This document shows positions 17,616 to 19,741 of a stretch of 32,000 bases of DNA, piece after piece. This stretch comes from Candidatus Baldrarchaeum yapensis (GTDB lineage Archaea > Asgardarchaeota > Baldrarchaeia > Baldrarchaeales > Baldrarchaeaceae). The position numbers were made by a program, and so were the translations under genes. The stretch's first letter is position 1. Each line of letters starts with the position of its first letter. A model generated the notes under the pieces. The model did no database searches. It was not told the DNA's origin and was given only the letters and a program-made list of their open reading frames with translations. The stretch is taken from assembly GCA_016840465.1 (NCBI GenBank), contig JAEOSH010000004.1, positions 1 through 32,000 on the forward strand. The letters are read 5' to 3'.

Positions 17616-18019
17616 TTATAGCACCTTCTCATGGCGTAAAGTTTGAACTTCGAAGACACTTATTTTTCCTGATTCCGTCGTTTATTTATCTGTGTTTAGA
17701 GTTTTGTATTTCGTCGAAAAATTTGCCCGCGGTTCCTCTATTGCATCTTAAGGTTCCATTTGAGGAAATAATGCTATGATTTATGATTAAGATATCGAGT
17801 TAGGCTTTGTCTTCGACTCCTAAACTCTAAACTAGAGTGGCAAATTCTACAGGTACATATTCCATGCAAGTAATTTCTCATTTTTCGTAAAGGGAGCGTA
17901 TTAACAATGCTTAATAGCGAGGAGGATTATTCCAGCGAAACGATTATGTCTTCAAAGTTATGATTTTTTAAGAACCTTGAAGATCCGTTATGTGTGTATG
18001 ATAGGCAAAGGTGAAGAAT

Positions 18020-19741
18020 ATGACGGAAGAGCGTCCCTCCTGGGACGAGTATTTCATGGAGATTGCTCATATTGTCAAGAAGAGGTCGACATGCCTCCGC
18101 AGAAAGGTGGGTGCCGTTCTGGTAAAGGATCGGAGGATTCTGGCTACCGGATATAACGGAGCGCCGAAGGGGCTACCACATTGCGCCGAAGTTGGGTGTA
18201 TGCGCATAGAATTGAACATACCATCAGGAGAGAGGCACGAGTTGTGCTTGACTCCGGAAGTGGAGATATTAACGGAGGAAGGGTTCAAGGCGATACGGGA
18301 TGTTATCGCCGGTGAGCGCGTTATGACCCATGAGGGAGTTTTCAGGCCCGTGGAGAAGGTTATAGTGCGTGAATACAACGGCCCGGTCCTTGTCATAAAA
18401 CCTAAAGGTCTTCTTCCGGTGAGGTTAACACCTGAACATCCCGTGCTCGCGATCAGGACTGTTAGACGTGTAAATGACCGAAAGGCGATATGCAAAGAAG
18501 CATGTGTGAATAGGGTTAAGGAGAGATGTAGTAGGCCGTTTCAGGATTATAAGGAGGAATGGGTGCCCGCAGCATGCTTGAACTACGGCGATCTCCTTGT
18601 GTTTTGTTTTGACAATAGAGTTTGCAAGTTAAAGGAACTAGATCTGGCAAAGTATGTGGATCCGCCTCCGGATCTTTACATAAGAGTTCTTAGGGCGAGG
18701 GAGAGCGATCTCTTATATTGCGATATTGACGAAATTTATGGGATGAGCCGTGCGGTTGCGTGGCAATGGATGCACGGAAGCGCCCCAAGAAGTCATATAA
18801 TAGTTAGGAACGGCATGTTGCACATGGAGACTAGCTCCAGTAAGGACATACCGGCGGTTATTGAGGTAAATCCAGATTTGTTGTGGCTATTTGGTATGTA
18901 TTTGGCCGAGGGGTACTCATCTGGGAATCAGGTAGTTTTTTGCCTCAATGTCGAGGAAGGAGAACTTGCTGAGCGAATAGTTTCGATCATGAAGGAGCAT
19001 TTTGGGCTCACTCCGTACAAGCGTGGGAATGGAGCATCATTGCGTATTGTTTATTCATCAAAGATCCTAGCCACCGTATTTGCGAGAATGTTGGGCAGCA
19101 ACTCATATGACATGAGATTGCCTCAAGATTTCATGCTTCTTCCGCCATCACTCCAGTATTATATATTTTCCGGGTGGATTCAGGGCGACGGTCATGAGGA
19201 TGATCATGAAATATGTGCAACAACTACATCGAGGATTCTTGCTTTACAGATGTTCCAAATATGTCTTAGACTCGGAAAGATTCCATCTTTAGACGTTCAG
19301 CCGCCTAGGCCTCGTGTGAGATCCAAGATGTATAGGCTTGTATTGAAGAAGAGACCAAAAGTTGCAACAAGATACTTGCGTGGTAATAAACTCTACACGC
19401 CAGTTTCTCAGATAAGGATTGAGAATTACCACGGAGCCGTTTACAATTTGGAGGTAAGCGAAGCGCACTCTTATACAACTACGTCCTTTGTAGTTCATAA
19501 TTGTCGTGGGGTGCATGCGGAGCAAAATGCAATAATTCAGGCGGCTGTTTTCGGGGTTAGCACAAAGGGGGCCACTCTTTATTGTACCACATTCCCCTGC
19601 GTGATATGCGCGAAGATGATAATAAATGCGGAGATAAAGGAGGTAGTTTATGACGACGATTATGAGGATAAGTTGGCAAAAAAGTTGCTGGAGGAGGCGG
19701 GTATAAAGGTTAGGAGATTTCGGCTACATTCCAAAGATTAA
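18020..19741 (+). CDS. dCMP deaminase (cytidine/deoxycytidylate deaminase family) precursor containing an intein
   Basis: N-extein [27 protein letters not shown]; C-extein [17 protein letters not shown]; ATG at 18020 (ORF track starts at GTG 18011); about 154 aa after splicing. Confidence 0.95.
18245..19501 (+). mobile_element. Intein (419 aa) with LAGLIDADG homing endonuclease
   Basis: Block [14 protein letters not shown], block B LTPEHP, LAGLIDADG motifs [12 protein letters not shown] and [10 protein letters not shown], block H TTSRILA, block F VYNLEV, block G VVHN followed by +1 Cys. Confidence 0.95.

Follow-up and report, generated by a model that had tools for sequence, protein, structure and literature searches.

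A predicted class-1 LAGLIDADG intein in dCMP deaminase, an apparently overlooked intein host, from Candidatus Baldrarchaeum yapensis

The window analysed here, a stretch of 32,000 nucleotides from contig JAEOSH010000004.1 of the Candidatus Baldrarchaeum yapensis MAG, carries a dCMP deaminase gene interrupted by an insert with the sequence motifs and predicted fold of a 419-aa class-1 LAGLIDADG intein. The interrupted gene encodes the only dCMP deaminase of the CDA fold in the genome. We consider it very probable that this is a case of a selfish element in a host that has been overlooked, and not of a new kind of system.

Positions 18011 to 19741 of the forward strand form a single uninterrupted reading frame of 576 aa with GTG at 18011 as its first codon. 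Public gene calls begin instead with the ATG at 18020, which yields 573 aa (the form seen in P0003), and the stop codon is at 19739-19741. Pfam places dCMP_cyt_deam_1 in two separate stretches, with Intein_splicing, Hint_2 and LAGLIDADG_3 between them. The intein begins with C79 (18245-18247) and ends with N497 at 19501, followed by the +1 residue C498 (19502-19504); the DNA junctions read ...CACGAGTTG/TGCTTG... and ...CATAAT/TGTCGTGGG... The intein separates L78 from an invariant host Cys that precedes HAE by four residues, and a deaminase of 157 aa (154 aa counted from the ATG) is left when the 419 aa are taken out. An initial annotation, made from the DNA letters, had placed a full-length LAGLIDADG intein at 18245-19501 (C79-N497) directly before HAE and had expected a normal deaminase of about 154 aa upon its removal. 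Its coordinates, residues and DNA junctions proved exact, and intein-free orthologues (G004, G002) join at this junction. The features of the gene are as follows.

18011..19741, + strand: dCMP deaminase precursor including the intein, entire gene (frame, Pfam, NCBIfam, P0003)
18011..18244, + strand: N-extein, 78 aa, with helix 1, strands 1-2, GYNG at 18149-18160 and the invariant C28, H57, C58 and C63 (Pfam, alignment, translation; motif definition from PMC12088426)
18245..19501, + strand: predicted intein, 419 aa (C79-N497), class 1 with homing-endonuclease domain (domain matches, predicted structure)
18245..18283, + strand: block A of the intein, opening with the nucleophile Cys1 (C1 in 27/27 family members)
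18428..18439, + strand: block B, TPEH, with T62 and H65 in intein numbering (H in 27/27 and T in 26/27 family members)
18455..18556, + strand: Cys-rich insert in the Hint domain (family alignment, model)
18881..18913, + strand: LAGLIDADG motif 1 (...YLAEG), 11 residues, catalytic Glu at intein E222 (alignment, translation)
19160..19192, + strand: LAGLIDADG motif 2 (...IQGDG), 11 residues, catalytic Asp at intein D315 (alignment, translation)
19427..19462, + strand: block F (...VYNLEV...H...) (alignment, translation)
19484..19501, + strand: block G, SFVVHN, with the penultimate His and terminal Asn (alignment, translation)
19502..19738, + strand: C-extein, 79 aa, with the +1 Cys at 19502-19504, HAE at 19514-19522 and the PCVIC Zn ligands at 19595-19609 (Pfam, alignment, translation)

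The precursor scores 92 bits against PF00383 (cut-off 25) and contains the catalytic Zn motifs HxE and PCxxC. The allosteric motif of dCMP deaminases has been defined as G(Y/W)N(A/G) (PMC12088426), and the GYNG at 18149-18160, invariant in 160 exteins, satisfies this definition. From HAE, PCxxC and GYNG the host is assigned to the DCTD/ComEB-type dCMP deaminases (EC 3.5.4.12 family). Scored on the interrupted precursor, the NCBIfam ComEB equivalog reached 139.8 bits, below its cut-off of 219.45, and the protein was therefore assigned to the dCMP deaminase family and not to the ComEB equivalog. The anti-phage dCTP deaminase (NF041025), which combines a kinase-like N-domain with a deaminase, was also rejected: the score is 111 bits against a cut-off of 400, and the alignment covers the deaminase part alone.

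When 40 related genomes were searched in six frames, intein-free orthologues came up, among them two from the same order: G004, which is 84% identical over both exteins, and G002. In both, the two parts of the query, as far as residue 79 and from residue 498 onwards, adjoin exactly at the predicted junction, and the translation across it reads ...SGERQEL-CRG[VL]HAEQNA... The initial annotation had also described the +1 Cys as conserved in the host; the junction residue is Cys in 120/120 intein-free homologues, which identifies it as a native host residue. C28, H57, C58, C63, GYNG, HAE and PCxxC are invariant or nearly so across these 120 homologues and 40 spliced exteins. The model of the 84%-identical empty orthologue (pLDDT 92.6) fits the S. 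mutans dCMP deaminase 2hvw with a TM of 0.85-0.87 and an rmsd of 1.7 Å, and places the junction Cys in the loop directly before the HAE helix. The allosteric motif lies in the N-extein, as do three of the four Cys that are invariant, and the C-extein holds all the catalytic Zn ligands and the Glu. Before splicing the deaminase is in a split state and presumably inactive, and the precursor as a whole probably gains activity only once spliced.

The MAG comprises 2.27 Mb and is 96% complete; no second CDA-fold deaminase (PF00383) was found in it. ThyX is encoded, ThyA was not found in searches of the MAG, and there is one dUTPase/Dcd-like gene with a score below its family cut-off. The MAG has only one other intein, likewise of the LAGLIDADG type, in a 968-aa ribonucleotide reductase at G000:C61:26260-29166 (L106:761-3667, minus strand). 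Both inteins thus interrupt enzymes of dNTP synthesis. Separately, a 275-aa frame at G000:C55:22915-23445 has two LAGLIDADG_3 domains and no Hint match, and may encode a homing endonuclease that is free-standing or carried by an intron. The Trm5 gene beside the deaminase in the window has its best named relatives in Ca. Bathyarchaeia, at 47-52% identity. The organism is found in hydrothermal-vent, sediment and seawater metagenomes, and an assembly artefact was ruled out by the recurrence of the occupied allele in contigs of several runs.

Translation of each piece verified that the splicing residues are all present, as the initial annotation had stated: C1, TPEH as the TxxH motif, the penultimate His and terminal Asn (H496-N497) and the +1 C498, together with both LAGLIDADG motifs. 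Across 27 family members there is little or no variation at the residues of blocks A, B, F and G or at the two LAGLIDADG acids. On the precursor, TIGR01443 (intein_Cterm, NCBIfam) scores 24.1 against a cut-off of 15.6 and PF14528 (LAGLIDADG_3) 28 against 22.5; PF14890 (Intein_splicing) gives 30.6 bits against 35.8, and TIGR01445 (intein_Nterm) 22.2 against 24.5. AlphaFold modelling of the intein from the 27 homologues gave a pLDDT of 89.8 and a pTM of 0.88. The best PDB matches of the model in Foldseek are all endonuclease-bearing inteins (7qsu, 2cw7, 7qst, 1vde and 1dq3; E 3e-20 to 5e-11), and this agreement of the predicted structure with solved inteins (E 3e-20) is far more than chance would give. 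For the nuclease core of the model, I-DmoI and I-Tsp061I are the matching structures, with about 173 columns aligned and a TM by target of 0.57-0.67. Taken by its motifs and modelled fold, the insert is a genuine and canonical intein of class 1, and its homing endonuclease is of the double-motif LAGLIDADG type.

Two peculiarities of the intein are worth recording. The Cys-rich insert has the family consensus C-x7-C-x3-C-x8-C, which could form a small Zn knuckle; the window copy has Arg for the first Cys of this pattern, and this insert is the sole low-confidence region of the AlphaFold model. In block F, the intein has Asn in VYNLEV where Asp is common. This Asn is probably tolerated, since it is invariant within the intein family (27/27 members). 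The nearest relatives of the intein outside deaminases are in B12/radical-SAM (Tes-like) and redox enzymes, at no more than 36% identity.

We infer that the intein of the window splices. Following standard intein chemistry, the precursor of 576 aa would be translated and undergo an N-S acyl shift at Cys1, the thioester would be transferred to the +1 Cys, and cyclisation of Asn419, aided by His418, would free the intein. An S-N shift would then yield the normal deaminase of 154/157 aa. The endonuclease would be predicted to cleave alleles that lack the intein at the conserved stretch which codes for SGERxEL/CRGxHAEQNA, and after such a cut the intein would be copied in by repair.

The insertion site is occupied in many other organisms. 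About 40 protein clusters (500-600 aa) have the exact site and the intein family in common with the window, at 37-57% identity to the window copy in the intein and 49-67% in the exteins. A DNA pattern for the C-terminal junction was run over 185,579 species genomes and found 11 besides that of the window, all of them MAGs: one each of Archaeoglobaceae, Archaeoglobales and Ca. Methanoxibalbensis ujae, four other archaea, two Omnitrophota, one Planctomycetia and one Selenomonadaceae. Empty alleles are far commoner, with at least 8000 short homologues at E <= 1e-10. The suggestion of the initial annotation that the site might be unrecorded stood in one respect, as no description was found in the searchable literature, and was weakened by sequence data, where the site is widespread in archaea and bacteria, is also used by an HNH intein and has a second site nearby. 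In the databases the genes concerned have no label, or are called 'hypothetical' or 'deoxycytidylate deaminase'. In a scan of IMG/VR with the intein alignment for a viral reservoir, the inteins that turned up were all distant (21-31% identity when the whole intein is compared), and no deaminase was among their hosts.

An unrelated intein with an HNH_3 endonuclease is found at the identical site in P0072, P0076, P0098 and L103 (Selenomonadaceae MAG JAFZMV010000119), where the junctions read ...GERHEL/C...HN/C[MV]AVHAEQN. A second insertion site (site b) lies nine residues downstream, after HAEQN, and is occupied in G001 and P0044-P0048, with the +1 Cys replacing the usual Ala. The surroundings of HAE thus form a hot spot in multiple lineages, in which two sites are nine residues apart, LAGLIDADG and HNH nucleases use one site, and occupied alleles occur in archaea and bacteria.

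In G001, a genome of the same order, L014:2292-4880 (minus strand) encodes an 862-aa dCMP deaminase whose site-b intein has an HTH_3 domain beside its LAGLIDADG_3 domains. The same gene has an N-terminal in-frame fusion to a LAGLIDADG_2 domain (PF03161) of about 225 aa, so that two nuclease modules are present on a small enzyme. P0011, a partial sequence from a Ca. Bathyarchaeota MAG, has the same-site intein and an extra N-terminal extension of about 64 aa before the deaminase start RPSWDEY.

The history of occupancy was followed on a careful extein tree of 48 rows. The clade that contains the window is well supported (99/88) and also holds nine empty alleles and one allele occupied at site b, and at least five occupancy changes (gains or losses) are forced by well-supported branches. 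An AU test rejected a single clade of all occupied alleles (p 0.0016). It also rejected a clade of the window with the Archaeoglobales-type group, which has its closest inteins (p 0.023); this group was chosen once a first tree had been seen. In a quick version of the tree, of 159 rows, the AU test for the window with the Archaeoglobales-type exteins gave p 0.7, and a better tree had escaped the free search. The conflict between occupancy and the extein tree points to past horizontal spread or to repeated loss.

Whether the intein may still be mobile, a possibility raised in the initial annotation, is a separate matter from its past movement. It may be an old resident that has kept splicing and has an endonuclease that is inactive or is left without targets in the population, and to this we give somewhat less than even weight. 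Such an intein would have to splice still, its host gene being the only one for dCMP deaminase, and its persistence would rest solely on imprecise loss being destructive to that gene. The intein looks old since no relative above 57% identity was found among about 15 billion proteins, the nearest being 54-57% identical with near-copies nowhere, and since its GC is like that of the host (intein 0.457, window 0.464). In the contigs of four metagenome runs only the occupied allele was seen, with 0 differences, and no contig joins across 18245-19501 as a same-strain empty allele would, which is weak evidence as it comes from contigs only. Decay is seen elsewhere in the family, with the catalytic acids lost in 3/27 and 2/27 members and deletions in P0036 and P0037, and in the window copy the Cys-rich insert has lost the first of its Cys.

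Against this, the window copy keeps both catalytic acids and both complete LAGLIDADG motifs, and its endonuclease domain is as conserved relative to the closest homologue (57%) as the Hint domain (58-59%). The nuclease domain also folds with high confidence in the AlphaFold model, and the samples contain other organisms whose empty alleles encode the same target peptide. In runs X3 and X6, high-depth contigs of other organisms align at window 19514-19551, to the HAEQNA-coding stretch only; upstream they code for GERHEL-CRGL, and are intein-free alleles with the same target peptide in the same community. On balance we lean slightly towards a nuclease that still cuts.

An unlikely alternative, of which the initial annotation had given the outline, is that splicing is conditional, with the +1 Cys doubling as a structural Zn ligand together with C28, C58 and C63, and with Zn, redox state or temperature gating the dUMP supply for ThyX. 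C28, C58, C63, C498 and H57 are invariant in 160 exteins, and C28 and C58 align with Cys19 and Cys49 of the T4 dCMP deaminase, which we take to be structural Zn ligands. The deaminase gene is single-copy, and with the only other intein of the MAG in the ribonucleotide reductase, both interrupt dNTP synthesis. Control of splicing by Zn and by disulfide formation is known in other inteins. No open paper was found that names the residues of the structural (second) Zn site of dCMP deaminases or shows that the equivalent Cys binds Zn; what argues for Zn- or redox-gated splicing is that the Cys does not vary. On the other side, the distribution, patchy and at odds with the tree, is the pattern of a selfish element, no regulatory need is evident because the closest extein relatives are without the intein, and the dUTPase/Dcd-like gene offers an alternative route to dUMP. 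If splicing were conditional, the hydrothermal metal or redox state would gate maturation of the sole dCMP deaminase and, together with the intein of the ribonucleotide reductase, dNTP supply would be under post-translational control.

It is highly improbable that the intein is unable to splice and has inactivated the deaminase gene: the block F Asn in place of Asp and the two profile scores slightly below their cut-offs would fit this, but the 576-codon frame is unbroken, all nucleophiles and assisting residues are retained and invariant across the 27 homologues, the catalytic and allosteric residues are all retained in the exteins, and the gene is the only deaminase copy in the genome.

A selfish intein in an overlooked host accordingly remains our preferred reading. 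The occupation of the site in dozens of metagenomic archaea and bacteria indicates an ordinary intein in such a host, and by its sequence record dCMP deaminase appears to be a repeatedly invaded one. The finding extends the range of intein hosts to a small zinc deaminase of the dTTP pathway, and it fits the preference that inteins are known to show for active-site motifs in enzymes of nucleotide metabolism. It also has value for annotation, as these intein-bearing genes are labelled 'hypothetical' in public records. The compact 154-aa extein is in addition a system for asking whether a +1 Cys in a metal site makes splicing metal- or redox-sensitive.

The initial annotation had remarked that dCMP deaminase is not a classic host, and no description of an intein in a zinc dCMP deaminase was found in the searchable literature, probably because all carriers are uncultured. 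The deaminase intein known from the literature is the halobacterial 'dtd' allele in dCTP deaminase, an enzyme described there as new among intein hosts (Soucy et al. 2014, PMC4071816). It is likewise in a pyrimidine-deaminating enzyme of dTTP synthesis. dCTP deaminase belongs to a dUTPase-like, zinc-independent family (PMC12088426), and since it is unrelated in fold and mechanism to the zinc enzyme of the CDA fold, the two are not the same allele. In the survey of Novikova et al. 2016 (PMC4760082), COG category F (nucleotide metabolism) is enriched and the hosts include ribonucleotide reductase and ThyX, with dCMP deaminase absent from the top-15 host lists. The inteins of ribonucleotide reductase and ThyX belong to the same dTTP-pathway network as that of the window and differ from it in the host protein.

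The closest counterparts are the same-site inteins of the MAGs (Archaeoglobaceae JALWDS010000031, Archaeoglobales QMZE01000177, Ca. Methanoxibalbensis ujae JAOQIN010000008, Omnitrophota and Planctomycetia; P0004-P0039). These agree with the window in insertion point (...ERxEL/C ... HN/CRGxHAEQ), intein family and architecture, whereas they lie in other extein clades and some of their nucleases are decayed. Among solved structures, TliVMA/PhoVMA (7qsu, 7qst), PI-TkoII (2cw7), PI-PfuI (1dq3) and PI-SceI (1vde) likewise have a Hint domain split by a double-motif LAGLIDADG nuclease, Cys1, TxxH, HN and the +1 Cys, and they too interrupt a nucleotide-handling enzyme at one of its active-site motifs. 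Sequence identity to these inteins is only 10-14%, and the intein of the window differs from them in its additional Cys-rich insert downstream of block B and in its block F Asn. Their hosts are an ATPase, polymerase or reductase, whereas the host described here is a zinc dCMP deaminase of 154 aa.
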